Shown here in pieces: positions 14,836 through 59,458 of a stretch of 64,000 nt of DNA. The notes under the pieces were generated by a model. That model had not been told where the DNA came from and searched no databases. It worked only from the letters and a program-made list of their open reading frames with translations. Position 1 is the first letter of the stretch; every line of letters begins with the position of its first letter. The position numbers were made by a program, and so were the translations under genes. Source of the DNA: a virus; the IMG/VR virus record IMGVR_UViG_3300009553_000019, positions 88,627 to 152,626 of that record; one strand, written 5' to 3'.

Positions 14836-15913
14836 GGTTAAGCAAGGAGTTACGAATTGGTTTGAATTTGCTATCGAACCTTTTCCTTATACCCGTCTTG
14901 TAAAGAATAGTCGCTGGACTTCTGGACCAGATAGCCAAGAGCAGAAGTATATCCAGTGGAAAGAAGACTTTAGAAACCTTTATGGAGCTCTTGATTACAA
15001 TGGTTATGAGTTTATCCCTTATCACGAACCATTATCGATTGGGGCCCTTTTTAGAGTAAGTACGAACTGGGCTGGTAAAGATGTCGACAATCTGGTCAAA
15101 GCAGTCTCGGACTGTCTCAACCCATCTCGTAGAAAAGACTACAGTGATTTAGCTACATTTGCTTGGGTTGACGATAAACAGATCAAATGCATCAACCAAG
15201 TAAAGAGTTATCAAGGCGATGGCTTGATCCAGTTTGGTATCACACCAATGTGGGGTCGAATAGATCCCATGATCAATTTTGTTGAAGGGCATGCAAACTG
15301 GGACGCAGATGGTTTGTGTAGCTTACAGACCTATATCTGCGAAAGCACTTTAAGCTATACCTGGCAGCTGCAGTTACAAGCTGGAGATAGACAGGTTCTT
15401 AATGAAAATTGGGACCCTACCTGTAGTGATCTTTACACCTTCTATGTCTGGCCACAACTGTATAAAGACCGTTACCAAGCCTTTTTAAGGCCTGAATCGA
15501 TCATCTTGTTACGATTGATTCAGTCAATCCCAAGAATGACTTTTGAGACTGGATTGAAGGTTTTACAAAACAGGTGGGGTCAAGTTCAAGAGGGTTGGGA
15601 AACTGGAAACGGTGCTCTCTGGAAATCTGATGGGCTTTCACAGGTTAAAGCCCAAGCGGTTTTGGATGCAGTGAGATCAGTAACTAAGGATCCGGTATCA
15701 TATTTCCAAGTTCTTCAATCAAATTTTAATCAGGTCATGTTCAACAAAACTGCGGAAGATATTTCACAGCAGTTCTCAATTCCGTGGGGTAGCGTTAGAG
15801 TAACTTTACGCGATATGAACCTTGACTGGAAATCTAAGAAATCTCCTGACATTATCCTGAACCTGTTTGAAGAGAGAGCTAATAAACGTGAGCAAGTCAA
15901 ATCTAAAGCCTGA
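14825..15913 (+). CDS. RusA-family Holliday junction resolvase fused to a RuvA-like region
   Basis: RusA motifs DVDNLVKAVSD and WVDDKQI; from MINFVEG onward the spacing resembles the RuvA OB fold plus two degenerate HhH motifs. Confidence 0.7.
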   Translation: MEIRVKQGVTNWFEFAIEPFPYTRLVKNSRWTSGPDSQEQKYIQWKEDFRNLYGALDYNGYEFIPYHEPLSIGALFRVSTNWAGKDVDNLVKAVSDCLNPSRRKDYSDLATFAWVDDKQIKCINQVKSYQGDGLIQFGITPMWGRIDPMINFVEGHANWDADGLCSLQTYICESTLSYTWQLQLQAGDRQVLNENWDPTCSDLYTFYVWPQLYKDRYQAFLRPESIILLRLIQSIPRMTFETGLKVLQNRWGQVQEGWETGNGALWKSDGLSQVKAQAVLDAVRSVTKDPVSYFQVLQSNFNQVMFNKTAEDISQQFSIPWGSVRVTLRDMNLDWKSKKSPDIILNLFEERANKREQVKSKA

Positions 15914-17117
15914 TGCTATCCCATTCAACTTTGAAACTGTTTTCGAGATTTCAGAGATCCAGGCTTACTGCAACGACTTTTGGATAGCTCAAGATGCAGC
16001 CAATAAAGAGCAAGGGCTGACTGTTACTCGTGAAGAGTTTGAAAGAGGGCCTAGCTCAAAACCCCACGATACTAAGTGGCATGCTTATCGTCAGTTGTTA
16101 GAAGATCTGTATCGACGAGAAATAGTCGAATCGACATATCCAGATACAGATGTTATCATGCTTGGAGATTTTTCGATTGAAGAGGCTGGAACTGAATTGT
16201 TAATGTTTGGTCAAGCTTACTTGATACCAGACTTTAAGTTTTCTGAGAGAGTGATACAGAAACTCTCATCTAGGGAAATGTCTGTCAAACATCGGACTGT
16301 TTCTCAGCAAGAGATCGATCAATCAGTTAACAAGGTTCTTGAATCTTTGTTAGCAAATCATAGTCTTGAACGAGAAAAGATTCACCCATTTGGCGCTGAA
16401 GTCCAAATTGAGGAAGGGGATTTGGTATTAGCAACTATTCGACCAACCATCAACGGCGAGATTTGGAAGGTGGGGGTTTTAGATCGCGGAAAGATGCGTA
16501 TCGTTCGAGGTGGTTTGCATCCAGAAGCTTTTAGAGAACAGTTGATTGGAAAGACAGTTGGCTCTCATAATGTATCATTTGTCCTGGATTCAAAGTTTGG
16601 CAGTGACGAAGGATCTACGGTTGAAACTACTGTAACTATCCATGCAATTCTATCGTACGTTTTGCCAGACTGGACTAATGATTTAGCTCAGAAATTTGGT
16701 AGTGAGACTGTTGATCAGTTAAAAGCCACAGTTAGAGCAAAGTGCGAATCTAATCTTAAGCAGCATTGGGAAGCTTCGGTGGTTACTGAGCTGTTTCCCC
16801 AGATTATGGATAACTCTGAATGTGGGGTTATTCCGATGGCTATGATTCTGACAAAAACTAAGGAATTATTAGATAATTGGTTAAAACGGTCTAAAGTAGA
16901 GGATCTCTACAAGGCATATAATGTAGCTTCTGAAAGAGAACTCATTGCTAGGCTGAAGTTAGAGGTTCAAGATGAGCTTTCTCATTACGTTTTGATGTGG
17001 AATTTAGGTAAAGTTCTTGGAGTCGAACGTAAGAAAGAAGAGAGCTTAGGAAACTCGAAAGCCTACATGCAGAGGGTTACAAGTAAGGTGGCTTCTTTGG
17101 TAGAGGTTGTTTCTTGA
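15888..17117 (+). CDS. tig: trigger factor-like chaperone
   Basis: EGDLVL.TI..TINGE, F.EQLIG, VTIHAI..VLPDWTNDLAQKFG.ETVDQLK..VR: trigger-factor FKBP and C-terminal domain pattern; about 410 aa. Confidence 0.75.
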   Translation: MSKSNLKPDAIPFNFETVFEISEIQAYCNDFWIAQDAANKEQGLTVTREEFERGPSSKPHDTKWHAYRQLLEDLYRREIVESTYPDTDVIMLGDFSIEEAGTELLMFGQAYLIPDFKFSERVIQKLSSREMSVKHRTVSQQEIDQSVNKVLESLLANHSLEREKIHPFGAEVQIEEGDLVLATIRPTINGEIWKVGVLDRGKMRIVRGGLHPEAFREQLIGKTVGSHNVSFVLDSKFGSDEGSTVETTVTIHAILSYVLPDWTNDLAQKFGSETVDQLKATVRAKCESNLKQHWEASVVTELFPQIMDNSECGVIPMAMILTKTKELLDNWLKRSKVEDLYKAYNVASERELIARLKLEVQDELSHYVLMWNLGKVLGVERKKEESLGNSKAYMQRVTSKVASLVEVVS

Positions 17118-18390: not shown

Positions 18391-20070
18391 TTGAAGATGC
18401 GTCCGCTGAAACCCGTAGACGGAAATCCATCTCTGAGTGATGATGCGATTAAGCGAATCGCTGATCGTAAAAAAGTAGCTCAAGAAGAGGTACACTCTCC
18501 AGAAATGGATCAGGCTGTCGAAGCTCAAGCTGATGAACCAGTAGAGATTGAAGCTGAGACTGTCGTTGAGGCTAAGAAACTTGCTAAGAAGGCAGGTTTT
18601 GAACCAGTAGGGAGTGGGGTTTATAAAAAGGCTCACGACCTTTGGAACATGCACAAGAGTTCCGATGGTAAGTATGCTTTAGTGAGGTTGGCTGCTGAAC
18701 CTGATGTCTTTCCTGAAGATGAGGTTAAGGAAGCTCCAAACCCAATGGAAGGAAAGACTGCGAGTCGCCATCCAGTTGAGACCTCTTATAAAGAGACTCT
18801 TATTGCTACTGCTGGAGCTGAAACTGGCCTGACTGACCGATATGGGATTACAGTCAAGGTTGGGGATGTTGTTAGCTACACTTTAGGTGGCGAAGATGTT
18901 TCTGGCAGGGTGGCTAGTTACATGGGCAATGGGTTGAATATCCAGCTTGAAGGTCAGTTGGATAGTGGCGTTCCTGCCGACTTCGTTAGTGTTAATCGAC
19001 AGGCTAGGAAATTTGCTCAAGAAGATCCAGGCCATGATTCTTTAATCGATGATGCTCATTCCATCGATATGGTCAAGCCACGTCCTAACAAAGATGATAA
19101 AATGGCTGCCAAATTTGCAGAGCTTTTTTGGTCGTCTTACGGAGCTGAACTGGCCGATACAGTGGTTAGAAACCCACTTCCAGCTAGGACTATCGAAGGT
19201 CTTAATAAGTTAGCAACAGTTGATCTTAGCAAGATCGCATCCAGAGTCTCCAAGACTGCTAGTTGGGAAGCTCTCAACGAGTATGCAGGACAGGCTAAGA
19301 CTTCATCTGTTAAAGATCTGATTGTCAGTGGTCTAGCCATTCGACAAGCTTCGGTTGAGTTGAATCTTCCATTTAATGTTGCTTGGGAATGTAGAGACGT
19401 CATCTCGACTTTAAATAAGAAGGCTGCGAAAAGCTTATTTGATGGTTTGAGAGAAGCTGAAGCGTTGCATCCATCTGATCCAGTTGTAGCTCTTATGGTT
19501 AGAGAAGCTGGTTGGAAGAATGTTAAGAAAGCTTGCTTAGCCATTCAGAGCTTTAGGGATGGGTCTCTTGATGCAATGATTAAGAAAGCTGTTGATAGCT
19601 CTGCCAAGAGTTATTGGCAAGACTACTTTGGTGATTATGGGAATGCTTGGGTTCGTGACATCAAGAGAAAAGTTAAAGCTGATCTTAGCAGGGCTGTATT
19701 GAAGAAGCAAGGTCTTGATGATGCAGCTACAAAGTACTGGGAAGAGTACTTTGGCGATTATGGTAAGAACTTGGTTGACAATGTCGATAGAGCAGTTACT
19801 AAGACCAAGTCAGTAACTCCTGAGGGTCGTAAGGCAAGTGTTGATATGCCACTGCCCCAGCCAGTTCAGCGAATTGATATCTTCGCTAATGTGATTCCAC
19901 TTCTTGATGAGCAGGTAGGGAACAATAGAGTAGCGATGGTCGTTACTCCATCCGGTGTTCATCAGGTTTTGATTCGGAGAGGTTCTGCTCAGAAACGACA
20001 GTCTCACGAATCTAAGGCAAAAGCAATTGAAGCTTACCAGAAGGCAGTGTTTGCTTTCTGTGGACTTTAA
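18391..20070 (+). CDS. large hypothetical protein, probable head/virion-associated, [KR]xA-rich with YW..YFGDYG repeats
   Basis: 559 aa; many KTA/RQA/KKA motifs; YWQDYFGDYG and YWEEYFGDYG. Confidence 0.55.
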   Translation: MKMRPLKPVDGNPSLSDDAIKRIADRKKVAQEEVHSPEMDQAVEAQADEPVEIEAETVVEAKKLAKKAGFEPVGSGVYKKAHDLWNMHKSSDGKYALVRLAAEPDVFPEDEVKEAPNPMEGKTASRHPVETSYKETLIATAGAETGLTDRYGITVKVGDVVSYTLGGEDVSGRVASYMGNGLNIQLEGQLDSGVPADFVSVNRQARKFAQEDPGHDSLIDDAHSIDMVKPRPNKDDKMAAKFAELFWSSYGAELADTVVRNPLPARTIEGLNKLATVDLSKIASRVSKTASWEALNEYAGQAKTSSVKDLIVSGLAIRQASVELNLPFNVAWECRDVISTLNKKAAKSLFDGLREAEALHPSDPVVALMVREAGWKNVKKACLAIQSFRDGSLDAMIKKAVDSSAKSYWQDYFGDYGNAWVRDIKRKVKADLSRAVLKKQGLDDAATKYWEEYFGDYGKNLVDNVDRAVTKTKSVTPEGRKASVDMPLPQPVQRIDIFANVIPLLDEQVGNNRVAMVVTPSGVHQVLIRRGSAQKRQSHESKAKAIEAYQKAVFAFCGL

Positions 20071-20086
20071 ACTAAGGGTTAGATAA

Positions 20087-20707
20087 ATGGGACTCAATAT
20101 CCAAAACCTCACCAATCAAAACATATCATTTGAGGCAACCTCCTTTTCTGCTCAGGGTCATCATCTCACTGCTAGAGCTTTGATCCCTGCAGGACAGACT
20201 GTTGATGTTGCAACTTTCTTGCCAAAGGGGATGACTCATCAGCAACTTGCTCAATCACGACAAGTATTGGATGAGTTCAACCGAGTGGGTGGTCCTCGTT
20301 ATAACCTTGTACCAACTGGTGTTACAGCTGCTAAGCTTTTGAGCCAGTTAACTGCAAACTACAACTTGGGTGTTACCCAAACAACTGGTGCTGCAGTAAC
20401 AACCCCAGGTCTTTTCTTTGGTGCTGCGACCAGAGCTGGTCAAGCTACCAAGCTTCGAATCACTACAGTTAAGGCTATTGCTGTTGGTGAGTCCTTGAAT
20501 GTTACTACACTGAATCAAAACGGTGTTAACATTCTCCCATCGACCTTGACACTGCCAGCCTCTTCAACTGCTAGAAGTTTCGTTGAAGCTGTTTTGAACT
20601 CACCAGTATCTGATGGTGATGTGTTTGAAGGCATAATTACATACACTGCTGGTGGTGGTCCAACTATCGGTGCAGTTCGCTATGAGGTTATCATAGCTAC
20701 TCAGTAA
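20087..20707 (+). CDS. probable virion structural or decoration protein
   Basis: Thr/Gly/Ala/Val-rich, beta-type composition, in the large-protein block. Confidence 0.45.
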   Translation: MGLNIQNLTNQNISFEATSFSAQGHHLTARALIPAGQTVDVATFLPKGMTHQQLAQSRQVLDEFNRVGGPRYNLVPTGVTAAKLLSQLTANYNLGVTQTTGAAVTTPGLFFGAATRAGQATKLRITTVKAIAVGESLNVTTLNQNGVNILPSTLTLPASSTARSFVEAVLNSPVSDGDVFEGIITYTAGGGPTIGAVRYEVIIATQ

Positions 20708-20717
20708 TGGATCTCTG

Positions 20718-20924
20718 ATGAGTTCTAATCAAATAGCGGAGGCTGGACGAGGGTCTGCAGCCTCCGCTATTTGTAAAGATTGTGGTCCAGCCAGTTGCTT
20801 AGATGAAAACTGCTCTGGAACCTTGAAGCAAGTTTTAGGTTTGAAACCGATACAGTATCGGTGTACAAGTTGTAAGCAAGAGTTTTTACTCTCTAAGATT
20901 CTACGCGAAAGAAAGTTTCTGTAA
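20718..20924 (+). CDS. small zinc-finger protein
   Basis: CKDC..C..C..CTSC. Confidence 0.5.
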   Translation: MSSNQIAEAGRGSAASAICKDCGPASCLDENCSGTLKQVLGLKPIQYRCTSCKQEFLLSKILRERKFL

Positions 20925-20925
20925 T

Positions 20926-23900
20926 ATGCAAACCCGCAAGGCGCTGAAAAGACTTGGTGGAAAAGACACCGATCTGTTCATCTCAAATCCGGCAGCTTTG
21001 GAAAAGTTTAAAGCGGTAGCTGAAGCAGATGCTAGCAGAATCGAAGAACGTAAGGCTCAGAAATCGATCTCTCAGCCACATTTAGATGTATTGAAGAATC
21101 GAGTCTTAGCAACCATTGATAATGACTTCAATCCTAGTCTGCCAGTTGTTGGACGGTTTGATGCCTATCAGTCCGTTAAAAAACTAGTCAATGCAAGCTC
21201 TGATCATGGCGTTAAAGCCCTAGGTTATCAGCTTAGATCACTGTGGGAAGCTGATCCTACTGGTGTTTTAACTGCTGGTCAACTTACCAATTTGAAGAAG
21301 CATTATGCTCAGTCTTATGGTAAGACAGCAGCTGTTGACATTATCTCCAACGCTCTTCCAAAAGTTGGATTTGTTGAATTACCAGTTCAGAGATTAGCTG
21401 TGATGGCTAGTCGAATTAAAACTCAAGCTGATTTTGATGAAGCTTGCAGAATTGCTGGACTTGCTGGAAACCGTCCAGACCAGATCCGAAGCCGCCAATA
21501 CATCCTCGCCTTATTAAAGATGGGTGAGAATGTTCCAGAAGCTGGAGAGGTTACTGAGGGGAATCCAATGGAGGTTGAAGTGTCAGGTCAGCCTGAAGGT
21601 CAAGTTCCAGGAATTACCGAATCGAATGCTGCTGAACAACTCTCTAACAAGAGTGCTATGGACAGCAGAGTTAGAACCTCTAGGTTACCTTCTGCTAACC
21701 AGGTTGTCGAAGCTGCTCTTGATGCTCAAACGGTTAAGATCGCTGGTTGGACGTTAAGGGTTAATGACCAAGATATGGTTGTTATCCAATCACCAACAGG
21801 TGGGCAACGCCAAGCTCGCCTTAGCCTGATTGATAAGGTTGCTAGTGACTTTTTGAAGATGGCTCAGAGTGATCCAAACTTTGATCCAAAGGTTAATCAG
21901 CAACAGCCAGATGCGGTCAAAGGCATCGGAACTGGTGATGCAGAGTTAGGACCTGATTCTGACACTGAAGAGGGTTTTAAAGAGCCAAAGCCAATTCAGA
22001 AGCATCCAGCTCAAAGCCAGGCTGGAACGTCTACTGGAGTTGTTGGTAAGACTAGTCGTAAGACAGCTGCAGCTAGGCTTGAAGCTAGTTCAACTGCTCC
22101 AAAGTGGGCTGCCACGCCTCATCTTTGGACAATGGTTTATAACAAGCTGAAGTCTGCTGGAAAGCGGACTGACTATGTTTCAGTGTCTGCTAACTATAAG
22201 CTAGCATGCCAGTTTAATGCTAAGCCTTATAAGACTGCTGGTGGTGGGGAAACCTTAGGCCCAGACAGTGGACAGGAAGAGGGGTTTTCAGTTCCATCGG
22301 TAAGCCCGCAGAACATCAATCAGCCAAAGAATCAATCAGGTACTTCGTTACCTGATAAAGCTGATGCTGAAGAGCCTGATCATGGACAGGATCCAGTGCC
22401 TTGGGAGAATGTTAAGCCAAATCCCAAGCTGTCACAGTTGATGCCTGAAGCTGACATGCAGGAGACTGCTGGTGGTCCCGGTTCTGGGCGTAAAAAAGAG
22501 AGTCCAGGTGAACACCCAGCCATTGCTAAAGAGAAAAAGCTTGAACAGCAGAGAAACCATATCTGGAACAATCAGGTTGGAAATGGTACTCCATCTCAAG
22601 CTCTTTTTAAAGCAAATGATGCTTTGCGAGACCACCAAAAGATGATGCATGATCAGGGTATTAAGCAACACCCAGATCATCCTGCGGAAACTTTTGGTAA
22701 GGGAAAGTCAGAAGGGGTTCCAGGTCTCTCTAGTACTGCTCCATTTAGTCATCAACCAAGTCCCGATCTAGGTAAGCCTAAGCCATCGACTGGACCAGTC
22801 GGGCCTCAACTGCCTACGCCAAACATTGATGAGATGCTTCAGGGTGATCCACCTAAGCCATCGACTGGGGTTCCAGGACTATCTAGTACTGCTCCATTTA
22901 GTCCTGGAGTTCAGAAACCTGGGTTGGGAATGCCATCTGATCCTGGTGCACAAAGTTTAGTAAATCCTGATCATCAATGGGATCCAGAAAAAGGTCAGTA
23001 TGCTCCAAAACCTGATATGGAGCCTGAAGCTGACAAGCATGATGACATCGAGAACCTGGAAGATCAAGCTATCAACCAGCTCCAAACAACTCAGAGCTTG
23101 GAGAAGGAAGTCAATGCGGACATTGTTGATAGCTTCGTGGCATCTCTTGATCCAGCTGAAGGTTATCGTCAAGCAAAAGCTAATCGTCCAAGTCGAGATC
23201 TTTTAGCAGGGATTGGCGATGAGAATGGCTGGTTAATGCGTCAGGCTCAGAGCTTGATTGATAACAAGCAAGTCTTCACTTCTGATCGAAACGACATCGA
23301 CCAAGATGGGGAAGCTGAAGTTCGTGAAGATGGCAAGATGGCATTTACTTTTAAGTTTGATGCCAATCTGAACCCACCAACTCAGAGAGAGCTTCAAACA
23401 TATGTTAACAGCTTTACGGGTAATCGCTCTGCTTTTATTGTTGAAGCACATCAGATCGAAGGAAACCACGCCTTCGCATTAATTCGTCAAGCTGAAGACG
23501 ATGAGATGGAACCTGATGATGATGAAAAAAGAGCTGCAATTCGTTGGGCTGCTGGTAAACAATCTCAAGAGATGAACATCCCACAGGCTGTACCAAGTTC
23601 TGGTGCAGATAATTCTGGAGGGATGTCTAACTCAGTTGAAAGCCAAATGGGAGCTAACGCCTGCATGGCTTGCAACGGATCAAACCTACAAGATGTCGGA
23701 TCTGGAATTCAATGCCAAGATTGTGGAATGATGCATGATGCTCCAGAGCAACTTCCTCAGTTAGACGTTGGCAACAACCCACAGGGAATGGGTGCTGACT
23801 ATAATGGGGCCATCCTGAATCGTGAGAGTCAAGAGAATGATAATGCAGGTCCACAACAGGATAACCCATTATCAAATGAGTTGCAGCCATACGAAGAAGA

Positions 23901-24303
23901 TGAGTTAGAGCAGCGTATGCAAACAACTCCTCCCAACAATCAAACCTACGCTTCAAAGACAGCAGCTACTCTGTCTGAAGAATGGGGAGATGGTGGGAAC
24001 TATGGCCGTCATTTAGAAGCAGATGATGCTCAAGATGTTCATCAACTCCATCGTTACATGAATGGAGAAGTCCCTGATTGGAGCCATCGCCAAATGACTC
24101 CAACAGCTCCAGGTATGACTCCACCACCGGCTCCAATGGAAACTGAATCACAAGTTCAGCCTGGAGCTGTTGGTAATCCGATGAAAGCCCCAGAACCTGT
24201 TCCTCCCAAGCTGGAACCAGAACCTGAAGTTCAGACAGCTCAAAGCCAAACTGGTGGACAGTACCTAGATCAAGACCTTGCTGCTTCTGTTGGAGGAATG
24301 TGA
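20926..24303 (+). CDS. 1125-aa largely disordered protein, probable head/internal protein, [KR]xA-rich
   Basis: P/G/Q/E-rich; internal repeats GVPGLSSTAPFS x2, PKPSTG x2, LGPDS..EEGF x2; AGGPGSGRKK; zinc ribbon CMAC..CQDC. Confidence 0.55.
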   Translation: MQTRKALKRLGGKDTDLFISNPAALEKFKAVAEADASRIEERKAQKSISQPHLDVLKNRVLATIDNDFNPSLPVVGRFDAYQSVKKLVNASSDHGVKALGYQLRSLWEADPTGVLTAGQLTNLKKHYAQSYGKTAAVDIISNALPKVGFVELPVQRLAVMASRIKTQADFDEACRIAGLAGNRPDQIRSRQYILALLKMGENVPEAGEVTEGNPMEVEVSGQPEGQVPGITESNAAEQLSNKSAMDSRVRTSRLPSANQVVEAALDAQTVKIAGWTLRVNDQDMVVIQSPTGGQRQARLSLIDKVASDFLKMAQSDPNFDPKVNQQQPDAVKGIGTGDAELGPDSDTEEGFKEPKPIQKHPAQSQAGTSTGVVGKTSRKTAAARLEASSTAPKWAATPHLWTMVYNKLKSAGKRTDYVSVSANYKLACQFNAKPYKTAGGGETLGPDSGQEEGFSVPSVSPQNINQPKNQSGTSLPDKADAEEPDHGQDPVPWENVKPNPKLSQLMPEADMQETAGGPGSGRKKESPGEHPAIAKEKKLEQQRNHIWNNQVGNGTPSQALFKANDALRDHQKMMHDQGIKQHPDHPAETFGKGKSEGVPGLSSTAPFSHQPSPDLGKPKPSTGPVGPQLPTPNIDEMLQGDPPKPSTGVPGLSSTAPFSPGVQKPGLGMPSDPGAQSLVNPDHQWDPEKGQYAPKPDMEPEADKHDDIENLEDQAINQLQTTQSLEKEVNADIVDSFVASLDPAEGYRQAKANRPSRDLLAGIGDENGWLMRQAQSLIDNKQVFTSDRNDIDQDGEAEVREDGKMAFTFKFDANLNPPTQRELQTYVNSFTGNRSAFIVEAHQIEGNHAFALIRQAEDDEMEPDDDEKRAAIRWAAGKQSQEMNIPQAVPSSGADNSGGMSNSVESQMGANACMACNGSNLQDVGSGIQCQDCGMMHDAPEQLPQLDVGNNPQGMGADYNGAILNRESQENDNAGPQQDNPLSNELQPYEEDELEQRMQTTPPNNQTYASKTAATLSEEWGDGGNYGRHLEADDAQDVHQLHRYMNGEVPDWSHRQMTPTAPGMTPPPAPMETESQVQPGAVGNPMKAPEPVPPKLEPEPEVQTAQSQTGGQYLDQDLAASVGGM

Positions 24304-25061
24304 TGAGCGAAACTAGTTTCAAAATTCGAAATCTGTCAGGAGGGATCCTTACCTTCGAACTTATGCCAATGGAGCCAGTTCCTGAAGGTACTCCACAGTG
24401 GAGAGTTAAACGCTTAGCCAGATCAGGCATCCATTTCAAGATGGGAGTTGGGGCTGTCGTTGATCTGATGGCTCCTCCTTGGAATCTTGAATGGGAAAAT
24501 GCTGTCAACCAACCTAACGTTCAGTCATACATGAATCGTGGATGGCTGAAGCACGAACCAGACGAGGTTGAGACTGAATCAGGTGAAGAGAATCAAGAGT
24601 ATCTTCCAACACTTGAGGAGTTTGTAGCTGCTGGATACAAGGCTGAAAATTACGAAACCTTTATTCAGAATCGGTCTAAACCTTCTTCAGAAGAGCCAAG
24701 CAATACTATTAACAGTGAGGTTGAACCTATTGTTAATGACGGGTCTACAGAGACTACTGAAGAAGATTCTGATGAGGATGCAGATCAGGTAGGATCTAGC
24801 CAGACTGAGTCGATTAGCTCTGATCCCGTTGAGAAATCTTCAGAAGAGATCTCTAATGAACCTGAAGATGAATCAAATGACCCATCTCCAGAAGCAGATC
24901 CAGAAGAGTTGCTTTCCATAAAAGGAATCGGAAAAGCAATGAAAGCTAAGATTCAGAAGAAGTACAATATCGACACTGTCTCAGCTCTTAAGGCTGCTAT
25001 TGCTGATGGGACAGTTACAGAGACTTCTTTAATCTCTTTGTTCCCTCCTTCTGAAGGTTGA
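24300..25061 (+). CDS. acidic protein with C-terminal helix-hairpin-helix
   Basis: E/D/S-rich linker; ELLSIKGIGKAMKAKI HhH motif. Confidence 0.6.
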   Translation: MMSETSFKIRNLSGGILTFELMPMEPVPEGTPQWRVKRLARSGIHFKMGVGAVVDLMAPPWNLEWENAVNQPNVQSYMNRGWLKHEPDEVETESGEENQEYLPTLEEFVAAGYKAENYETFIQNRSKPSSEEPSNTINSEVEPIVNDGSTETTEEDSDEDADQVGSSQTESISSDPVEKSSEEISNEPEDESNDPSPEADPEELLSIKGIGKAMKAKIQKKYNIDTVSALKAAIADGTVTETSLISLFPPSEG

Positions 25062-25141
25062 TGGATTTACAACGTAATAGTTGAGGCGGTAAACTATATT
25101 GAGAGACTGACTCTCAAAACCTGCAAAGGAAAAAATCTACC

Positions 25142-25762
25142 ATGAAAACGACGATAAAAACTCTTCTTCCAATCCTGCTGCTACTTGCTCTGTTCTGCAC
25201 ACCACGAACTGCCTCCGCCCAAACGTGGTGTTTCCGATACATGTCCAGCGAGTATTTCGAGTTCCATACGCTGAACCAATGGTCGGTTTGGAACAACTCA
25301 TTTGGTAGCGTAGCGGAAAGCACTCGGATGAGTTACCCGGCTGGAGGAACGTCGGCGTCTTTTTACATCTCTCAGTTTGATCCACCAGAAGCGTTCATCG
25401 TGATCGACCACCCGTACGATGCTCATTTTGGTGCCCCACAACAAGCTTCCCACCAGGTTGGATGTCCATTCGATTTCATCAAGCCAGTTGGTAAACCTAA
25501 ATACTGCGCGATGGCAGCTTACGTCCATGCTGACTCCCATGTGAAGGGAAGCATCCAGATGTTGGACTCGAACTACTTCTATCAGTATGTAGAGAGTTTC
25601 GATATACCACCAACCCCAGCCGGTCAGTGGCACTTCGTTGGGACACCAGCGATACAAAACTGCACTCAGAATATGATCGCTCGAGTCGAATTGGACAAGC
25701 CAGGCGAATATCAGGAAAACCGCGCGTACGTCGATTTCGTCTCCGTCACTTGGTGGTATTGA
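25142..25762 (+). CDS. secreted beta-rich protein with Sec signal peptide
   Basis: MKTTIKTLLPILLLLALFCTPRTASA-Q signal peptide; AAAGGA RBS; more C/G-ending codons than neighbours. Confidence 0.7.
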   Translation: MKTTIKTLLPILLLLALFCTPRTASAQTWCFRYMSSEYFEFHTLNQWSVWNNSFGSVAESTRMSYPAGGTSASFYISQFDPPEAFIVIDHPYDAHFGAPQQASHQVGCPFDFIKPVGKPKYCAMAAYVHADSHVKGSIQMLDSNYFYQYVESFDIPPTPAGQWHFVGTPAIQNCTQNMIARVELDKPGEYQENRAYVDFVSVTWWY

Positions 25763-25783
25763 GTTCAGATTACTCTTTCAATT

Positions 25784-26059
25784 ATGAAACTCATACCAAC
25801 ACTACTGTTGCTAGTTGGCTGCTCTGGTTCAATCGACGAAACCAGATCCTACGCTGGCAGCCCATTTGAATCTAGCAACCATTCTACTCCCATTGAAAAC
25901 ATCACGTGTACCACTTCCGTTTTGGACGATGACTGCTCGATAGAACAAAGCGTCGTCCGTTGTACTAGCGAGATCGAACGACCCGACACTCAGTACTGCA
26001 CTGGACCGATCGATCGACCTAACCAAATAATTGGTCGTGTTTGGTGCTGTGATCGATGA
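25784..26059 (+). CDS. small Cys-rich lipoprotein
   Basis: MKLIPTLLLLVG-C lipobox; six further Cys ending in WCC. Confidence 0.65.
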   Translation: MKLIPTLLLLVGCSGSIDETRSYAGSPFESSNHSTPIENITCTTSVLDDDCSIEQSVVRCTSEIERPDTQYCTGPIDRPNQIIGRVWCCDR

Positions 26060-27561
26060 TTGAAGATCACTTCTCAAACCGTTCACTGAAGATTCTAGCA
26101 TTTAAGACTAGAGTTTCAGTGAGGATTGGAAGTGGCAAGCTTTACTGTGAAGTAGCTAACAGCCCAGTGGAATCGACCATCGGGCTGCAAAAGCATGCCT
26201 TGCTTAAGGATGGGCAAGGCATGCTTTTTCCCTTTACACCACCAAGGTACACAGAGTTTCATATGGGAAAGGTTGCATTTCCCATTGATATTGTGTTTAT
26301 TGGTGCTGATCGTAAAGTTGCAAAGATTGTTGCTAACATCCAACCTGGAACAAAAGGGCATTGGGGCTGTAATAACACTGCCTTTGTAGTTGAAGCTAAG
26401 GGTGGTTGGGCTGCTAACCACTCAGTAACTGAAGGTTTAATGGTAGAGCTTAACCCTTTTGAAGATGAAGATAAAGAGGGAGCTGCTACCTCCGATGTAT
26501 TAAGAACCATCACTGAAGCATCAGTTAAAGCAGAGATCAATAGAGCTATCAGACTTGGTCAGATTCCTGCTTTAGATCGCTTTGCAAACTTATCAGATAT
26601 TGATAAGAAGGTTGTAGCTGTTCATAGTCTTGATTCGGCTAAAAGCTTACTCTCTAAGTATGATGAGAACCCAGGTTTCTATAGGGTGATAATCTCTCGT
26701 ATGATTCGAGAAGCTAGCAAGCACAGTCAGATCAAGCTAGATGATGTAATTCTGCCAATCCAGACTGGATATGAATGTCCTTGCTGCAAGCATCCTAACT
26801 GTGACTTACATGGTAGAAGCCAAAAGGCAGCCCAACAGATTGTCTTGATGTTGACACCTGAACTCATGCAACAGCTTCAGTTAGGGATGGATCCCTTTCA
26901 GAGCATGAGTCCAAATGTTCAGTCTGCTTTTGAACGAATTAGCAAGCTGCTTGAAGCCAATGTGGATGATTCCAAGCTTGCTTCTGCTTGGAAAGAAGCT
27001 CAGGGAAGCTTAGATTTTTGGGAGCGTGATGCTCTTGTTAGATCTTTGCATGATAGCGGGTTTAAGAGAGCTATTGGTTTGCTAAAGATTGCTCAAGAGC
27101 ATGGAAAAGTTACTCTTACAGATCGTAGAAACCCTGGGGCAGTAAACCATATCTCTCCAGAGACTAAGTACAGTAGCAACCAGATTCCCGCAGATATTCC
27201 AGGTGTTGGAGATGCTGCTGACTTTTCTAACTGGGATCAATCAACTGGTTACGATCAGTCTAATCCACAGTTCTTAAATGAGGATGGGCCTGGATACCGG
27301 CCTGGTTCAAAGCAGGCTGGTGGCGGGATTCATCCAGGCGACCGAGTAAAAGTTACCCAAGCTGTTGATGGGTTACAGGATGATGATGCTGGAGTCGCAG
27401 AAGAAGTCCAAGAAGGGGTTATCCTCGTTCGTTTAGACGGTGGAGAAACTCGATGGATTTCTGATAAAGTTCTTAGTGTTGAAAAGAGTAAAGATGACAT
27501 CCTTTCGGACGATAAAGAAAAAGGCAAGTCGTCTGGTGGATGGCATGGGTGGGGTCATTAA
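26056..27561 (+). CDS. DUF192-domain protein with [KR]xA-delimited C-terminal modules
   Basis: CEVANS..GLQ..L..GQGMLFPF..FHMGKVAFPIDIVFI..FVVEAKGGW is DUF192; SH3-like C-terminus. Confidence 0.75.
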   Translation: MIEDHFSNRSLKILAFKTRVSVRIGSGKLYCEVANSPVESTIGLQKHALLKDGQGMLFPFTPPRYTEFHMGKVAFPIDIVFIGADRKVAKIVANIQPGTKGHWGCNNTAFVVEAKGGWAANHSVTEGLMVELNPFEDEDKEGAATSDVLRTITEASVKAEINRAIRLGQIPALDRFANLSDIDKKVVAVHSLDSAKSLLSKYDENPGFYRVIISRMIREASKHSQIKLDDVILPIQTGYECPCCKHPNCDLHGRSQKAAQQIVLMLTPELMQQLQLGMDPFQSMSPNVQSAFERISKLLEANVDDSKLASAWKEAQGSLDFWERDALVRSLHDSGFKRAIGLLKIAQEHGKVTLTDRRNPGAVNHISPETKYSSNQIPADIPGVGDAADFSNWDQSTGYDQSNPQFLNEDGPGYRPGSKQAGGGIHPGDRVKVTQAVDGLQDDDAGVAEEVQEGVILVRLDGGETRWISDKVLSVEKSKDDILSDDKEKGKSSGGWHGWGH

Positions 27562-30170
27562 TGTCAACCAAAGCTAATGAAGCTGCTAGACAAGCTATTA
27601 GCAGATCAGCTAACAGTGCATGGGATTTCTCTAAAAATCAACTAGAGTCTTCTCAACCAAAGACGTTGAGAGCTGTAGTTGCAACTGCTATTGACAAGAC
27701 TAGGAAGTTGTTAGCAACGTTTGAGATTCCAATTCCTCCAGATATACGCTATGCAAATATCAAGAGTACCAAAGTTGCTAACAAAGGCGGGCAACAGGTA
27801 GTAGAAGATGGTTGCGTAATGCTTGTAGCTAACTTCACAACTCTCAGTGGCGTTAGAAACAGTATAGATATCCCCGTTGAGATTCGTAATGGCCAGGTTG
27901 TAGATCCTGGTGTGATGATTCATGATGGCAGTCTAAAAGTGATTAGCCCCTCATCAATTTTGGACATAGTGAAGGCTGGAACCTTCAAGCAGTTTACAAG
28001 TCCTCGACATACTTTTTCAGCCCCAATGACTCATGATGAGCTACAGCGTTACCATCAGGTAGAGAAAAAGATGAACATTCAGCCTAGAATCAACCCAGGT
28101 TTATTTTCTGCCTCTAAAAACGCTAGCTTACTAAGAGCTGCAGTAAAGGGTGAGGGAGCTCTTGAGCTTGCAAAACAAGCTGATGAACAGCCCAGCGATT
28201 TTAGAGATATTGAAGACGGTGTTAGAGCTCTGCCAGATACTGAGACTCCACCTAAATGTCCAGATTGTGATTCGTTAACAGTTTTTGCTGACTATGACGA
28301 TGATCAGTTCGAATGTGCTACCTGTGGTAAGGTTGGTAACATGGAGTCATTCTGTAAGCAAGCTAACCAGCCAGCTTCAGCATCACTCAAGCTAAAGAGT
28401 AGCCCACCAACTACTAAAGGTGATCGAATCTGGCTTGAAATTTCTTGGGATCCAGAACAGACTGAAGATATGTCTGTTGGCAATATCAAACAGCAGATTC
28501 GAAGCTATGTTTTGAGGCTTGCTAACAACAAAGAACATCGGGATCTAGGAACGATTTCTGGTAACAGCATCTTTGAAGAGCTTGATGTTACAAAGGGCAA
28601 GGCTACTGTCAGCTTCAAATCATCTGAAGTTGCTTCGCCACAAGATTCGAGTGCTAGGGTTGAAGGTTCAAAGCAAGCTAAGGCTCAGCCAATCACTCCA
28701 CAAGAGATAAAGCCTGGGATGGACATCCTCATTGATGAGATGGGGCTGGGTGGGTATTGGACTCCACTTCATGTTACATCGATTGAACCCTACGGTGGTA
28801 GCTGGATTCTCAACCATGGCGAAACAATCATTGACGAACAAAGCTTGATTGTTAAGGACGCTAACAAAAAGGTTGCTGAAAGTTCAACTTGCGATTGTGG
28901 CGATGCTAAGTCTGAACATGAAAATGGCACTGACCATTGCAATGTTCCTGGTTGTGCTTGTCCAACGTTCAAAGCTGATGACGGTCCACATCATGAAGGT
29001 GCTAAGCAAGCTGCAATTGCCCCTAGCAATGATGATATGATCGACCCAGCCGAGAGAGATATTTCAGACGATTTCAAAGTTGGTGATGAAGTAAAGCTGG
29101 AAAAAGGGCAGTTGTTGAGAACTAGAGGTGGTGGTCAATCACAGCTAGAAAAGGGTGAAAAAGGTAAGGTTGTTGGAGATGTCTACGGAGATGGTGTCTC
29201 TCTAGAAGTTGAGTTTGAAGCTGGTACCTTCATTATTCCTAAGCAACACCTGAAGACTGCTGGTGGACCTGGTAGTGGCCGTAAGAAGAAAAATTCACCT
29301 GTTCAAGGCCCTGTTCAGAAAGATAAAGTACCTCAGAGTGATCCACCCCAGTCATCACCTGGTGTTTCGGATAAAGCATCTTTGAGTCCAGATTCTGCAT
29401 ATATGTTACAATGTATTAAGAACGTTAATTTTAGGGTTCCAGCTGATTCTAACTCACCAAGAATAAAAGAACTTGCAGCTAAAGGTCTCATTGAAGTAGA
29501 CGATGATGGTTATTATAAAGCAGTGAGTGGTAACCAACCTTGGTGGGGAGTTGAACCAAGTGGTCCTGAAAAGTCTGATGAACCTTCTAATACTGTCCAC
29601 CCACCTGATCCTGATTTTGTTCCAACACCTGCCAACCAAGGTGTGGACATGGGCGAGGCCTCTAGAGCTCATAGTGACGATGAGGGAGATGCATCCTATA
29701 ATTTCTTTTCTAAGCATTTTCCTGTCGGGACACAAATTAGCCATCCAGATTATGGCACAGGTGTTGTTACAGATACAAAGCATAGGGGTCCAATCATTGA
29801 TTGGAATGGTAGTGGTGAGCCAGAAACGCATGATTTAAATAGTCATGAAACACCTGAAGATATGGTAAACGAAATGGGCGAATTTACTCTGCATCGTCCC
29901 CCACAAAACGGTGGTAATCCTAAACAAAGTAAAAAAACTGCCAGTAATGAGGCTGACGAAGCTGACGAGTACAATCTGCCTGTAATGCCAGCTCCAGAAG
30001 AGCCAGAATTAAAACAGGCTGCCAGTATCCCTCAAATCATCAACGAACTGAAGAACTTGAGAGAAGCTGGCTATCCCGTAATTGATGTTGTTATACGCGC
30101 TAAACACCAGTATGGCAAACTAGGTGAGCAGGCTTTGAAGATCGCGAAAGCTCAGGGAGTTTTACAATAA
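27561..30170 (+). CDS. multidomain [KR]xA-rich protein, probable head/internal polyprotein
   Basis: Small modules (zinc ribbon, CxC..H..C..CxC, SH3-like) separated by KQA/KTA/KVA; KTAGGPGSGRKK. Confidence 0.55.
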   Translation: MSTKANEAARQAISRSANSAWDFSKNQLESSQPKTLRAVVATAIDKTRKLLATFEIPIPPDIRYANIKSTKVANKGGQQVVEDGCVMLVANFTTLSGVRNSIDIPVEIRNGQVVDPGVMIHDGSLKVISPSSILDIVKAGTFKQFTSPRHTFSAPMTHDELQRYHQVEKKMNIQPRINPGLFSASKNASLLRAAVKGEGALELAKQADEQPSDFRDIEDGVRALPDTETPPKCPDCDSLTVFADYDDDQFECATCGKVGNMESFCKQANQPASASLKLKSSPPTTKGDRIWLEISWDPEQTEDMSVGNIKQQIRSYVLRLANNKEHRDLGTISGNSIFEELDVTKGKATVSFKSSEVASPQDSSARVEGSKQAKAQPITPQEIKPGMDILIDEMGLGGYWTPLHVTSIEPYGGSWILNHGETIIDEQSLIVKDANKKVAESSTCDCGDAKSEHENGTDHCNVPGCACPTFKADDGPHHEGAKQAAIAPSNDDMIDPAERDISDDFKVGDEVKLEKGQLLRTRGGGQSQLEKGEKGKVVGDVYGDGVSLEVEFEAGTFIIPKQHLKTAGGPGSGRKKKNSPVQGPVQKDKVPQSDPPQSSPGVSDKASLSPDSAYMLQCIKNVNFRVPADSNSPRIKELAAKGLIEVDDDGYYKAVSGNQPWWGVEPSGPEKSDEPSNTVHPPDPDFVPTPANQGVDMGEASRAHSDDEGDASYNFFSKHFPVGTQISHPDYGTGVVTDTKHRGPIIDWNGSGEPETHDLNSHETPEDMVNEMGEFTLHRPPQNGGNPKQSKKTASNEADEADEYNLPVMPAPEEPELKQAASIPQIINELKNLREAGYPVIDVVIRAKHQYGKLGEQALKIAKAQGVLQ

Positions 30171-56733: not shown

Positions 56734-58182
56734 ATGAGAAGTTGGAATTCACGTACTGTTCAGTTGAAAGAAGATCTGCCCTACAACCTGCTGACTGACA
56801 CTGATAGTTACAAGTTCAGCCACCCTGGTTTGTATCCCGACGGTACGACCAGTATGCAAAGTCATCTTATCGCACGTGGTGGTGAGTTTGATACCTGTAC
56901 ATTAGCAGGGCTTCAGTACATTCTTCATAAGTATCTAGCAAAGCCAATCACGCTAGATATGATTGAAGAGGCTGAAAGCTTTGCTGGAAAGCATGGTGAG
57001 CCTTTCAACAAGGAAGACTGGCTCTATGTTATGAAAAAGTATGGCTACCTTCCAGTCAGGATTCGCGCTATTCCTGAAGGGTTGGTAGTACCAGTAAAGT
57101 CAGTACTAGCTACGGTAGAGTCGATGGTTGAAGATGCTCGGTGTTTCTGGATCGTATCCTGGATCGAAGATATCCTCGAGCGCTTGTGGTACCCTAGCAC
57201 AATTGCAACTACCAGCAGGGAATCAAAGAAGATCATCAAAGAGTATCTCGATCTTTCTTCTGATGATCCAGAGGCTGAAATTGGGTTTAAGCTTCATGAC
57301 TTTGGTGCTAGGGGTGTTGCCACTCTAGAGCAGGCTAGAATCGGTGGAGCAGCGCATCTTTTTAGCTTCTTCGGTTCAGATACCGTAGAAGGTATTCGAC
57401 ATGCTAATCACTATTACGATTGTGAAATGGCAGGTTTTTCAATTCCTGCAACAGAACATTCTGTAATGGCTATGTGGGGTGCTAATCATGAGATTAGCTG
57501 TTGCGAGAATTTCATTCGTAAGATGTTGATTGAACGCCAGGTTCCAGCAGGATCTCCAAAGTTTGCAGCTTGCGTTAGCGATACTTATAACGTGTTTGAG
57601 ATGTTTAAAGCTTGGACTCATCCCTTCTTACTCGATCTGATCAAACAATCAGGTGGGACTCTAGTTGCTAGACCAGATTCAGGTAACCCGCTAACGGTTC
57701 TTCCAACTTTGTTTGAGATTCTTCAATCAAGGCTGCCAATTACTATCAATAGTAAGGGTTATAAGCTGTTGCCATCTTACTTCAGGATGATTCAGGGTGA
57801 TGGCATTGATATGCAATCAACCAGAGCTATTTGTAAAACTCTGACTGACCTGAAGTGGTCGATCTCAAATATTGCCTTTGGTTCGGGTGGGGGTTTGCTT
57901 CAAAAGGTAAACCGAGATACTCAGATGATCGCTTTTAAGAACAACCATGCTATCATTAATGGCAAATCAGTTGCTGTTAGAAAGAATCCTATCACAGACA
58001 GTGGTAAGGCTAGCTTGGGCGGTCGTTTAGATCTAGCGCTGATTGATGGCGTTTACAAAAATGTTGTGCTAGATCTTGGTGTTGATAAACATCCCCAATC
58101 GGTTATGAATACTGTCTTTGAGATGGGTGATGTTATGTACCACACTACTATGGACGCTTGTCGGCAGAGGATGGCGCTGTAA
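56734..58182 (+). CDS. nadV: nicotinamide phosphoribosyltransferase
   Basis: TDSYKFSH, LWYPSTIAT, LHDFGARG, SIPATEHS, VSDTYN, ARPDSG, IQGDG, FGSGGGLLQKVNRDT. Confidence 0.95.
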   Translation: MRSWNSRTVQLKEDLPYNLLTDTDSYKFSHPGLYPDGTTSMQSHLIARGGEFDTCTLAGLQYILHKYLAKPITLDMIEEAESFAGKHGEPFNKEDWLYVMKKYGYLPVRIRAIPEGLVVPVKSVLATVESMVEDARCFWIVSWIEDILERLWYPSTIATTSRESKKIIKEYLDLSSDDPEAEIGFKLHDFGARGVATLEQARIGGAAHLFSFFGSDTVEGIRHANHYYDCEMAGFSIPATEHSVMAMWGANHEISCCENFIRKMLIERQVPAGSPKFAACVSDTYNVFEMFKAWTHPFLLDLIKQSGGTLVARPDSGNPLTVLPTLFEILQSRLPITINSKGYKLLPSYFRMIQGDGIDMQSTRAICKTLTDLKWSISNIAFGSGGGLLQKVNRDTQMIAFKNNHAIINGKSVAVRKNPITDSGKASLGGRLDLALIDGVYKNVVLDLGVDKHPQSVMNTVFEMGDVMYHTTMDACRQRMAL

Positions 58183-58303
58183 TGAAAATTCCAAAAGAGG
58201 TTACTGCCAGATTTGTAAACGAAGATACTCGATTTGTTATCAGTGGTATTAAATGCTCTACTGATGATGGTTTAGCAGATTTCACTATTAAGATTGAGCG
58301 AGA

Positions 58304-59458
58304 ATGATGGACTGGGGAGTTAAGAGTTCGATTAAAAGGCTGTTGGTTGATCAGCCCAAGGCCAAACTATACCTAGCCTTAGCAGGGTCGGGGATAGGAA
58401 CACTATTGAAGATACAGGAAATTCCCGGAGTATCTCAAGTTCTTCATGGTGCTAGGTTGATTTATGGCAAAGAGGATATGACAAACTTCTTGGGTTTTGA
58501 AGTAACTCAAGCAGTGTCAGAAAATACCTCAATCTACCTAGCGATGGAAGCATATACACAAGCGGCCGTCAATCACTCCACTATGCCAATAGGTATTGGT
58601 TTGACAACTGCTATTGCTAGTAATCGAGAGCATAAGGGTAAGCTAAGAGGTCATGCTACCATTATCTCTGACAAGCTAATGTGTACATGCGAATTTACCC
58701 TCCAACCAGGTGTTGGAGAGAATGCCCGAAGGCAGCACAACGATACCATAGATCTCGTTCTTGAAGGTCTGCTTCAGTCTACGGTGTCTAAAGAAACCAC
58801 CTCTTATCCTGTAGTCACTAATTGCTCTGAAAAAGCCTTGAGGCTGTTTTTAGAGATGGGCTATTTTGGTTCAAATGGGTTTAGGGGTAATTCAGAGCGG
58901 AATGGACCACCTGATGCAGTTATCTTTCCAGGTTCGTTCAACCCGGTTCACGACACCCATTTGCAGATGGCTAAATCGGTGTCTGAAGAGTTGCGAAAAC
59001 CTGTAGTACTCTTGGTTAGCACTGACCCACCACACAAATCACAGCAACCAGTAACAAACTTTCTTCGAATTGTCAACACCGTCCGTAAGTGGAACTCTTC
59101 GTATATTGGTCCAGCTGGACAGCTTCATGTTAAATTTCATACAGGTCTGCCTTTGTTTGTTGACAAAGCTAGGTTTTTTTCAGATCAGCAATTTATTGTA
59201 GGTGCTGATACTCTTGACAGGTTGCTCGATTCAAAATGGGGTCTACCAACGTGGGAAGTAATTAACAGGCTGAAGAATTCTAGAACGCAGCTTATCGTGT
59301 TTGATCGTATTTTAGAAGATGATTCTGTTTTGATGCTTCGTGATGTTCTAGATCAGTATCGAATCTGGCCTTATGCGAAGAGTAATTTTAGACAGGTTCC
59401 ACATACTCCTTCAAAGATCAGTTCTTCTGGGTTGAGAGCTGAAATAGCCAAGCTATAA
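58304..59458 (+). CDS. CinA/PncC-like domain fused to a NadD-like nucleotidyltransferase
   Basis: IPGVSQVL..Y..FLG..AVSE..LAMEA CinA-like; FPGSFNPVHDTH, FIVGADT and ISSS NadD-like. Confidence 0.8.
   Translation: MMDWGVKSSIKRLLVDQPKAKLYLALAGSGIGTLLKIQEIPGVSQVLHGARLIYGKEDMTNFLGFEVTQAVSENTSIYLAMEAYTQAAVNHSTMPIGIGLTTAIASNREHKGKLRGHATIISDKLMCTCEFTLQPGVGENARRQHNDTIDLVLEGLLQSTVSKETTSYPVVTNCSEKALRLFLEMGYFGSNGFRGNSERNGPPDAVIFPGSFNPVHDTHLQMAKSVSEELRKPVVLLVSTDPPHKSQQPVTNFLRIVNTVRKWNSSYIGPAGQLHVKFHTGLPLFVDKARFFSDQQFIVGADTLDRLLDSKWGLPTWEVINRLKNSRTQLIVFDRILEDDSVLMLRDVLDQYRIWPYAKSNFRQVPHTPSKISSSGLRAEIAKL

Follow-up and report, generated by a model that had tools for sequence, protein, structure and literature searches.

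Four large proteins of an uncultivated phage are punctuated by a [K/R]-x-Ala motif and may be processed by a prohead protease

Among the prohead proteases described to date, gp21 of phage T4 cuts at L/I-x-E and gp175 of phiKZ and gp245 of SPN3US cut at S/A/G-x-E, and in these phages head proteins, the scaffold and internal or ejection proteins are all processed. Herpesvirus assemblin (family S21), whose fold is shared by the phage prohead proteases, cuts its maturational and release sites after Ala, at (V/L/I)-x-A-S between Ala and Ser, and HK97 gp5 is cleaved at Lys103/Ser104. To our knowledge, few prohead-protease specificities have been established (those of T4, phiKZ/SPN3US, HK97 and a few others), and knowing them is central to working out which proteins a phage packages and how these mature. 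A different route to processed virion proteins has been proposed for the polyvalent proteins of phages and conjugative elements, i.e., large, multi-domain proteins encoded near virion genes that would be loaded into the virion, delivered and split into separate functional units by peptidase domains of their own (Iyer et al., 2017; PMC5512222). Here, we analyze a gene block at positions 18,391 to 30,170 of a 64,000-nucleotide window (the whole stretch of DNA examined, positions 88,627 to 152,626 of IMG/VR virus record IMGVR_UViG_3300009553_000019), which encodes four large proteins, A to D, crowded with the tripeptide [KR]xA (Lys or Arg, any residue, Ala). A preliminary description of the block had proposed that these proteins are protease-processed polyproteins with a common GGPGSGRKK tag. 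Their open reading frames (ORFs) are present as it described them (Table 1), although "giant" is an overstatement for proteins of 501-1125 amino acids.

To quantify the motif, [KR]xA was counted in every ORF of the contig and compared with the number expected from each protein's own amino-acid composition (Table 1). Proteins A to D occupied ranks 1-4 of 190 ORFs by Poisson P, with protein A, the ORF richest in the motif, ranking first (P = 3e-6), and the small ORFs lying between them showed no enrichment. In within-protein, composition-preserving shuffles (n = 5000), the 80 copies of [KR]xA in the four proteins compared with 31.3 +/- 5.0 (z about 10) and the 21 copies of the narrower [KR][TQ]A with 3.0 +/- 1.7; 0 of 5000 shuffles reached either count. 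The motif richness noticed at the outset is therefore borne out after correction for composition, with the remaining ORFs at expectation; for [KR][TQ]A, the other ~45,000 amino acids gave 44 copies vs. 34 expected. RQA and KTA were the two most over-represented tripeptides in A to D. Since the reverse motif A[TQ][KR] (1.0x) and the substituted motifs [KR][TQ]G (0.4x) and [DE][TQ]A (1.0x) were at or below expectation, the signal is both directional and specific, and the motifs of known proteases were likewise at expectation, whether T4-type [LI]xE (0.96x), phiKZ-type [SAG]xE (1.08x) or [VLI]-x-A (0.97x). A motif at the DNA level was rejected because the 21 [KR][TQ]A sites are encoded by 16 distinct 9-nucleotide codon strings, which places the signal in the peptide and not in a DNA word. 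Finally, the residue following [KR][TQ]A was Ser, Ala or Gly at 12 of the 21 sites, as compared to a background of 25% (P = 0.0016), and a small residue following Ala fits a cut after Ala.

The placement of the motif was resolved best in protein D, the one protein modeled with AlphaFold (74 aligned sequences). Its order is a conserved N-domain, a zinc ribbon, a middle domain, a Cys/His module, an SH3-like domain, a disordered region and a C-terminal helical domain, with confident domains at residues 41-180, 281-363, 497-575, 632-661 and 830-871. All seven [KR][TQ]A border motifs fall at domain ends or in low-confidence linkers of this model, as had been suggested for the module borders of this protein, and the K-K-T-A at residue 799 lies in a disordered linker far from any domain. 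Residues 497-575 adopt an SH3-like fold (VIA-align Z 7-9.1 and root-mean-square deviation 1.1-2.5 over 52-60 residues; Foldseek probability 1.00, E about 0.01), a match that speaks to fold only and not to function. Of the two SH3-like modules previously listed, the first (about residues 390-440) has no confident model. The N-domain (41-180) gave only generic cystatin/NTF2-like arrangements (VIA-align Z <=7.8; Atlas TM <=0.41), with no sequence match in the PDB and no feature match in the Atlas. Phage G gp7 was considered and dropped, its structural match in BFVD being weak (E 7e-4, TM 0.09) and gp7 being missed by profiles.

Protein D has 322 matches among representatives clustered at 50% identity; the N-domain is common to these homologues, and most have the SH3-like and C-terminal helical domains as well, with inserts that vary. 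In 149 of these homologues, [KR][TQ]A occurred 365 times vs. 90.7 expected, and its density was 10.7 per 1000 amino acids in residues 1-50, 1.2 in the folded core of the N-domain, i.e., at background, and about 3.5 in the remainder. The motif peaked where the SH3-like domain ends, where the C-terminal domain begins and on either flank of the middle domain: [KR]xA closes 56% of 93 SH3-like domains and opens about 80% of 62 C-terminal domains, and 15 of 18 middle domains have it 12-16 residues downstream. The N-termini of the homologues carry tandem copies (e.g., R-L-A-R-R-A and R-N-A-K-T-A), and K273/A275, K489/A491 and K572 of protein D are invariant in its homologue alignment. The motif is thus kept at the same domain borders across about 150 metagenomic homologues.

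Similar comparisons were made with G001, a complete 183-kilobase (kb) IMG/VR relative that is syntenic with our contig at 35-60% identity. Against the G001 homologues, 24 motifs were conserved in position, with roughly 12 expected given how well other Lys, Arg and Ala residues are conserved. Protein A, which has no match in Pfam, PHROG or NCBIfam, has a G001 homologue (h7029) with 18 copies of [KR]xA vs. 8.7 expected, and 8 of 19 aligned motifs are kept in position. Separately, protein A contains an internal repeat (residues ~398-470, window positions 19580-19830) that reads K-S-Y-W-Q-D-Y-F-G-D-Y-G and then T-K-Y-W-E-E-Y-F-G-D-Y-G, with the consensus YW(Q/E)(D/E)YFGDYG; the same unit occurs in stand-alone proteins of ~100 amino acids (Rctr197k_033; L012, 9231-9536; L011, 9205-9516) and inside Rctr197k_036. 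Protein B consists of a conserved N-terminal region of ~200 amino acids, a long P/Q/G-rich middle and an acidic tail. Its N-terminal domain is also found in Rctr197k_034, in P0152-P0163 and in L012, L011 and L009, the R-x-A at residues 4-6 is retained in homologues, and [KR]xA stands at 1.77x in 12 of them. Searches of A to D against Pfam, PHROGs and NCBIfam returned only DUF192 (in protein C) and weak zinc-ribbon matches, with no peptidase family; DUF192 aside, A to D belong to new families without Pfam or PHROG membership.

The simplest alternative is that the enrichment is a by-product of composition or shared ancestry, with Lys/Ala-rich helices and low-complexity tracts generating the tripeptide without any function. 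Indeed, some of the sites fall in stretches rich in Lys and Ala, such as K-K-L-A-K-K-A, and the broader reverse motif A-x-[KR] is mildly raised in A to D (1.34x). Nevertheless, the shuffles, the flat reverse and substituted controls and the retention of the motif at borders in about 150 homologues drawn from 50%-identity clusters largely refute this explanation, and A to D are mutually unrelated, yet all are enriched in the motif and their neighbors are not. We consider a by-product very improbable.

Our contig is linear, 152,626 bp long and estimated by CheckV to be ~80% complete, and the window is its final 64 kb. BLAST with PaBG and phage G proteins, by which terminase, portal and major capsid protein (MCP) were located here in place of Pfam profiles, found no portal or major capsid gene in it, and profiles PF03237, PF04586, PF03420 and PF05065 matched nothing in it or in Virus Rctr197k (KX853510). 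The contig ends 0.9 kb past the large terminase gene, and B and D have identical counterparts on record on a contig of 200,475 bp; the head module (portal, MuF, protease, scaffold and MCP) is therefore missing from the data and not from the phage. A collagen-repeat ORF 3' of the terminase runs off the contig end and the contig start is a collagen-like fiber gene, and the assembly probably broke inside collagen repeats, losing a head module of ~48 kb.

In G001, the head module comprises the terminase, three large proteins (one with Ferritin and InPase domains), the portal, a MuF-like protein, a 309-amino-acid protein, a 628-amino-acid scaffold-like protein and the MCP. The G001 ORF with the highest [KR]xA enrichment is the scaffold-like protein beside the MCP (21 vs. 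9.7 expected), and the homologues of A and B come next. In the MCPs of G001 and Rctr197k, the N-terminal extension holds 7 and 6 motifs vs. 3 and 1 in the HK97-like core, and tandem copies (R-T-A-E-N-R-E-A and R-E-A-R-Q-A) are found 6-10 residues before the start of the alignment to the phage G MCP, which lacks the extension. Four motifs lie within the first 90 residues of the portal. When the 95 G001 ORFs of at least 200 amino acids were ranked by motifs in their first 100 residues, the homologues of B, A and D, the MCP, the portal and the 309-amino-acid protein were all near the top. Statistically, then, one motif is common to the MCP propeptide, scaffold, portal and candidate protease of G001 and Rctr197k and to A to D of the window. 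The expectation that the motif would recur at the capsid and scaffold is borne out in these two relatives, our contig being without these genes.

The candidate protease is the 309-amino-acid protein (G001 h80745; L022:745-1674), which equals the N-terminal third of Rctr197k_047 and whose gene has the portal/MuF genes on one side and the scaffold/MCP genes on the other. The candidate has a match (E 5e-22) in phage G gp19, encoded between the phage G portal and MCP genes, and its invariant residues include a His, an S-M-G-C serine motif (F-S-M-G-C) and E-x-S-x-V-x-x-(P/G)-A-D. Feature matches in the ESM Atlas fell in clusters with Peptidase_S78, S77 and S80, and the best structural match there was a "prohead core protein protease" cluster (TM 0.68/0.71 over 228 residues). 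Alignment to the single HK97 gp4 sequence by hhalign placed the candidate Ser on gp4 Ser114, at a probability of 0.2% that restricts its use to the local alignment. No protease family in Pfam matched the candidate, and a profile search of PDB sequences found nothing. Its first 35 residues contain F-K-T-A, R-T-A and E-K-T-A, kept in about 30 homologues; since structural matches to prohead proteases begin right after, at about residue 27-35, the N-terminus looks like a self-trimming segment. A search for the prohead protease had been suggested: a candidate exists in the relatives G001 and Rctr197k, while our contig, lacking the head module, has no match to the prohead protease families PF04586 and PF03420. 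Two further features of the candidate were observed, a Cys-rich, zinc-ribbon-like insertion (C-x-C-x4-C-x2-C ... C-x-H) right after the putative catalytic Ser and, in Rctr197k, fusion to a scaffold-like region in one 998-amino-acid protein.

Taken together, we find it reasonably probable that A to D are substrates of the phage's prohead (head-maturation) serine protease and that this enzyme recognizes [K/R]-x-Ala. Thr or Gln would be preferred at the middle position in this phage and its close relatives, and hydrophobic or basic residues would be accepted as well. As the head assembles, the protease would remove N-terminal segments and split the multi-domain proteins at linkers into domain-sized pieces, just as it would free the MCP of its N-terminal extension and break up the scaffold; the pieces of the multi-domain proteins would either remain inside the head, as internal or ejected proteins, or leave it in the manner of scaffold fragments. 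We infer cleavage at the motif, a prohead location for A to D and the encoding of the same protease in the missing ~48 kb, and, by analogy with assemblin and given the small following residue, the cut would probably fall after Ala. The polyprotein reading of the preliminary description thus gains from the relatives, whose MCP extension, scaffold, portal and candidate protease carry the motif with the A, B and D homologues ranked beside them, and loses the part that concerned the tag, as discussed below.

Several observations weigh against processing by a prohead protease. Taken one by one, the statistics for the N-termini of the MCP, portal and protease are modest (P about 0.01-0.03), and the link to head maturation rests on relatives at 35-60% identity, our contig being without protease, portal and MCP. 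In distant relatives, the enrichment is weaker (1.5-2.2x) and the preference for Thr/Gln fades; PaBG and phage G are without both DUF192 and the D N-domain, and no cultured phage carries the A-D families. In A and B, the middle residue of numerous motifs is hydrophobic, and these motifs may simply sit in helices, and an Arg/Ala-rich N-terminal helix in D homologues (R-L-A-R-R-A-R-R-L-A) could inflate the counts for structural reasons. In this phage and in G001, moreover, 25-30 kb separate the block from the terminase, and the block is surrounded by genes for replication and nucleotide metabolism. Lastly, K78-V-A80 of protein D lies within a confident beta-hairpin of the AlphaFold model, and so does the Y-S-G-x-[KR]-x-A that is conserved in the D family; structure prediction placed the seven border sites at domain ends or in linkers, as anticipated, and this site inside a fold.

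The hairpin site would also be compatible with [KR]xA being a non-proteolytic short linear motif or structural element, such as a domain cap, a helix end or a docking signal that directs proteins during assembly to the portal, the scaffold or the inside of the capsid. Domain profiles often include the motif (V-P-x-x-x-L-K-x-A where the SH3-like fold ends and K-Q-A where the C-terminal domain begins), a stand-alone SH3-like protein of 146 amino acids (P0052) retains L-K-T-A-S-K-T-A after its domain, and a common assembly or targeting signal would equally suit the motif in the MCP extension, scaffold and portal. However, tandem or redundant copies such as R-N-A-K-T-A and R-E-A-R-Q-A, together with the turnover of sites, are typical of cleavage sites and not of structural caps, and the motif also occurs in disordered linkers, such as that at residue 799. 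A tandem copy stands exactly at the junction of MCP extension and core, where maturation cleavage is expected, and small residues are favored right after Ala. A non-proteolytic role appears unlikely.

Cleavage at the motif could also be due to another enzyme, such as a DUF192 partner, an unrecognized autoprotease or a host protease, acting in the infected cell or after delivery. Protein C comprises a DUF192 domain (residues 31-131; PF02643, E 4.5e-21, 75.2 bits vs. a gathering cut-off of 27; PDB 3m7a, E 1.4e-10), a helical, Cys-rich middle and, after S-K-Q-A, an SH3-like segment at the C-terminus. A DUF192 gene is found just 5' of the D-family gene in five contexts (our contig, the P0002 contig, Rctr197k, L009 and L012), and from this conserved arrangement a processing role for the DUF192 partner is conceivable. 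That the block of this phage and of G001 stands outside the head module, amid replication and nucleotide genes, points the same way, as does the self-processing proposed for polyvalent proteins (PMC5512222). On the other hand, no peptidase family was detected in A to D, our literature search found no functional study of DUF192 and no report of protease activity for it, and the crowding of the motif in the MCP extension, scaffold, portal and prohead-protease N-termini would be left unexplained. We regard cleavage by such an enzyme as distinctly unlikely.

The peptide T-A-GGPGSGRKK is indeed common to proteins B and D. Recent duplication was rejected as the origin of the two window copies, which differ at synonymous sites, including a TCT/AGT serine switch. 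Among close relatives, the GGPGSG peptide is present in 7 distinct copies in 5 distinct proteins, with the form [EQ]-A-[ED]-M-x-E-[TQ]-A-GGPGSG-[RQP], and the GGPGSGRKK peptide is confined to disordered regions of their B- and D-family proteins (also P0002, P0152 and P0065), being absent from G001 and Rctr197k; the whole, [EQ]-A-[ED]-M-x-E-[TQ]-A-GGPGSGRKK, is a conserved linear peptide of ~18 amino acids. The suggestion that cleavage at [KR]xA would expose GGPGSGRKK as a new N-terminal tag is unsupported, since 6 of the 7 distinct copies follow E-[TQ]-A or A-T-A and not [KR]-T-A. A basic residue three positions before the Gly run occurs in protein D only, where a deletion seems to have fused H-L-K to T-A-G-G. 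A broader scenario, which we offer tentatively as possible but doubtful, is that an Rctr197k-like clade of uncultivated phages of 150-200 kb uses a prohead protease of hitherto undescribed [K/R]-x-Ala specificity and punctuated polyproteins (zinc ribbons, SH3-like domains, DUF192 and helical caps) that would be taken into the head and cut at each linker to yield free mini-proteins for delivery to the host, with the conserved peptide around GGPGSGRKK as a second, specialized processing or targeting signal.

Almost all genes of the contig are on the + strand. Genes for PolA, a clamp loader, RecA, SbcCD, a MazG-like protein, dCTP deaminase and a dNMP kinase lie 5' of the block, and genes for a sigma factor, ThyX, a GH25 lysozyme and NAMPT, followed by the large terminase, lie 3' of it. 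Immediately 5' of the block is a trigger-factor-like protein (TIGR00115, E 1.3e-21, under the curated cut-off; Pfam Trigger_C, E 4.8e-5), kept in G001 (h4985), which may be a chaperone for large disordered proteins. Within the block, a 253-amino-acid protein whose gene overlaps the stop of protein B by 4 nucleotides has a long acidic, Ser/Glu-rich middle and a C-terminal helix-hairpin-helix (weak Pfam matches), and a 206-amino-acid protein without motif enrichment has a typical N-terminal signal peptide (a hydrophobic core, T-P-R-T-A and then S-A-Q) and is predicted to be secreted or periplasmic. Farther 3', a NAMPT-type nicotinamide phosphoribosyltransferase and a cytidylyltransferase-like (NMNAT-like) protein form a phage pair for NAD salvage. 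The block had no Megablast match in the phage collection, and tblastn matched only Virus Rctr197k and one fecal phage. In Rctr197k, the block (genes 033-043) is directly 5' of the terminase, with the same layout in the metagenomic contigs L012 and L009, and in relatives it is linked to Ferritin/InPase proteins of polyvalent type; both arrangements speak for the prohead-protease reading.

Table 1. Coordinates of the four proteins, their motifs and other features. Positions are those of the 64,000-nucleotide window; expected counts are from each protein's own composition.
Feature	Position	Strand	Details
Protein A	18391-20070	+	559 amino acids; [KR]xA 26 observed vs. 9.0 expected
Protein B	20926-24303	+	1125 amino acids; [KR]xA 24 observed vs. 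10.3 expected
Protein C	26056-27561	+	501 amino acids; [KR]xA 12 observed vs. 4.5 expected
Protein D	27540-30170	+	876 amino acids (gene callers start at 27561, giving 869); [KR]xA 18 observed vs. 7.4 expected
Rest of 152.6-kb contig			[KR]xA 361 observed vs. 347 expected
Protein D border motifs	28173-30020	+	KQA 212 (28173), KQA 273 (28356), KQA 378 (28671), KQA 489 (29004)
Protein D border motifs, continued	28173-30020	+	KTA 572 (29253), KTA 799 (29934), KQA 825 (30012)
T-A-GGPGSGRKK, copy 1	22465-22497	+	Protein B residues 514-524
T-A-GGPGSGRKK, copy 2	29256-29288	+	Protein D residues 573-583
Trigger-factor-like protein	15867-17117	+	
253-amino-acid protein	24300-25061	+	
206-amino-acid protein	25142-25762	+	
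NAMPT-type and NMNAT-like proteins	56734-59458	+	
Large terminase	60945-63074	+	709 amino acids; 36% identity to Rctr197k_044, 56% to G001 h63878
Terminase and collagen-repeat ORF	60945-64000		ORF runs off contig end

If the prohead-protease reading is true, [KR]-x-A would be a sequence rule that predicts scaffolds, the termini of mature capsid proteins and candidates for internal or ejected proteins across a large and wholly uncultivated phage group (hundreds of 50%-identity clusters), and it would suggest a phage route for delivering many small domains from few genes. As in T4, phiKZ and SPN3US, a single short motif recurs in the capsid propeptide, the scaffold, the portal, the candidate protease and several large proteins other than the capsid, N-terminal segments are rich in it and, in the relatives, the candidate protease gene lies in the head module between portal and MCP. 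Unlike the T4 and phiKZ motifs, the motif here is basic first and ends in Ala, not Glu, with L/I-x-E and S/A/G-x-E at expectation; its sites delimit many small folded modules per polypeptide and not only N-terminal propeptides; and the substrates are new families for which cleavage is predicted. With assemblin, the predicted system has in common a predicted Ala at P1, a small next residue (12 of 21 sites) and a candidate protease that would belong to the same structural clan (Atlas S77, S78 and S80); it differs in a basic P3, [VLI]-x-A showing no excess, and in the candidate's Cys-rich insertion after the catalytic Ser.

Like polyvalent proteins, A to D are large and multi-domain, with InPase/Ferritin neighbors of polyvalent type in relatives, and the block adjoins the terminase in three of these (Rctr197k, L012 and L009), though not in this phage or G001. 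Searches of Pfam, PHROGs and NCBIfam found none of the hallmark polyvalent domains (MPTase, MuF, ART, InPase, DarB-type and others) in A to D; in the relatives, InPase, Ferritin and MuF are in neighboring or head-module proteins and not in A to D. Unlike polyvalent proteins, which rely on an in-built metallopeptidase, A to D would need a separate prohead protease acting at a repeated linker motif. As in HK97 gp4/gp5, the MCPs of the relatives have an N-terminal extension, of about 115-160 amino acids, before an HK97-like core, and the candidate Ser aligns with gp4 Ser114; in contrast to HK97, where gp5 around its cleavage point reads F-N-K-S-L-G (sequence L028), the junction here carries tandem [KR]-x-A. 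In its motif, its substrate families and its module-by-module punctuation, the system outlined here differs from those of T4 and phiKZ/SPN3US and from polyvalent proteins.

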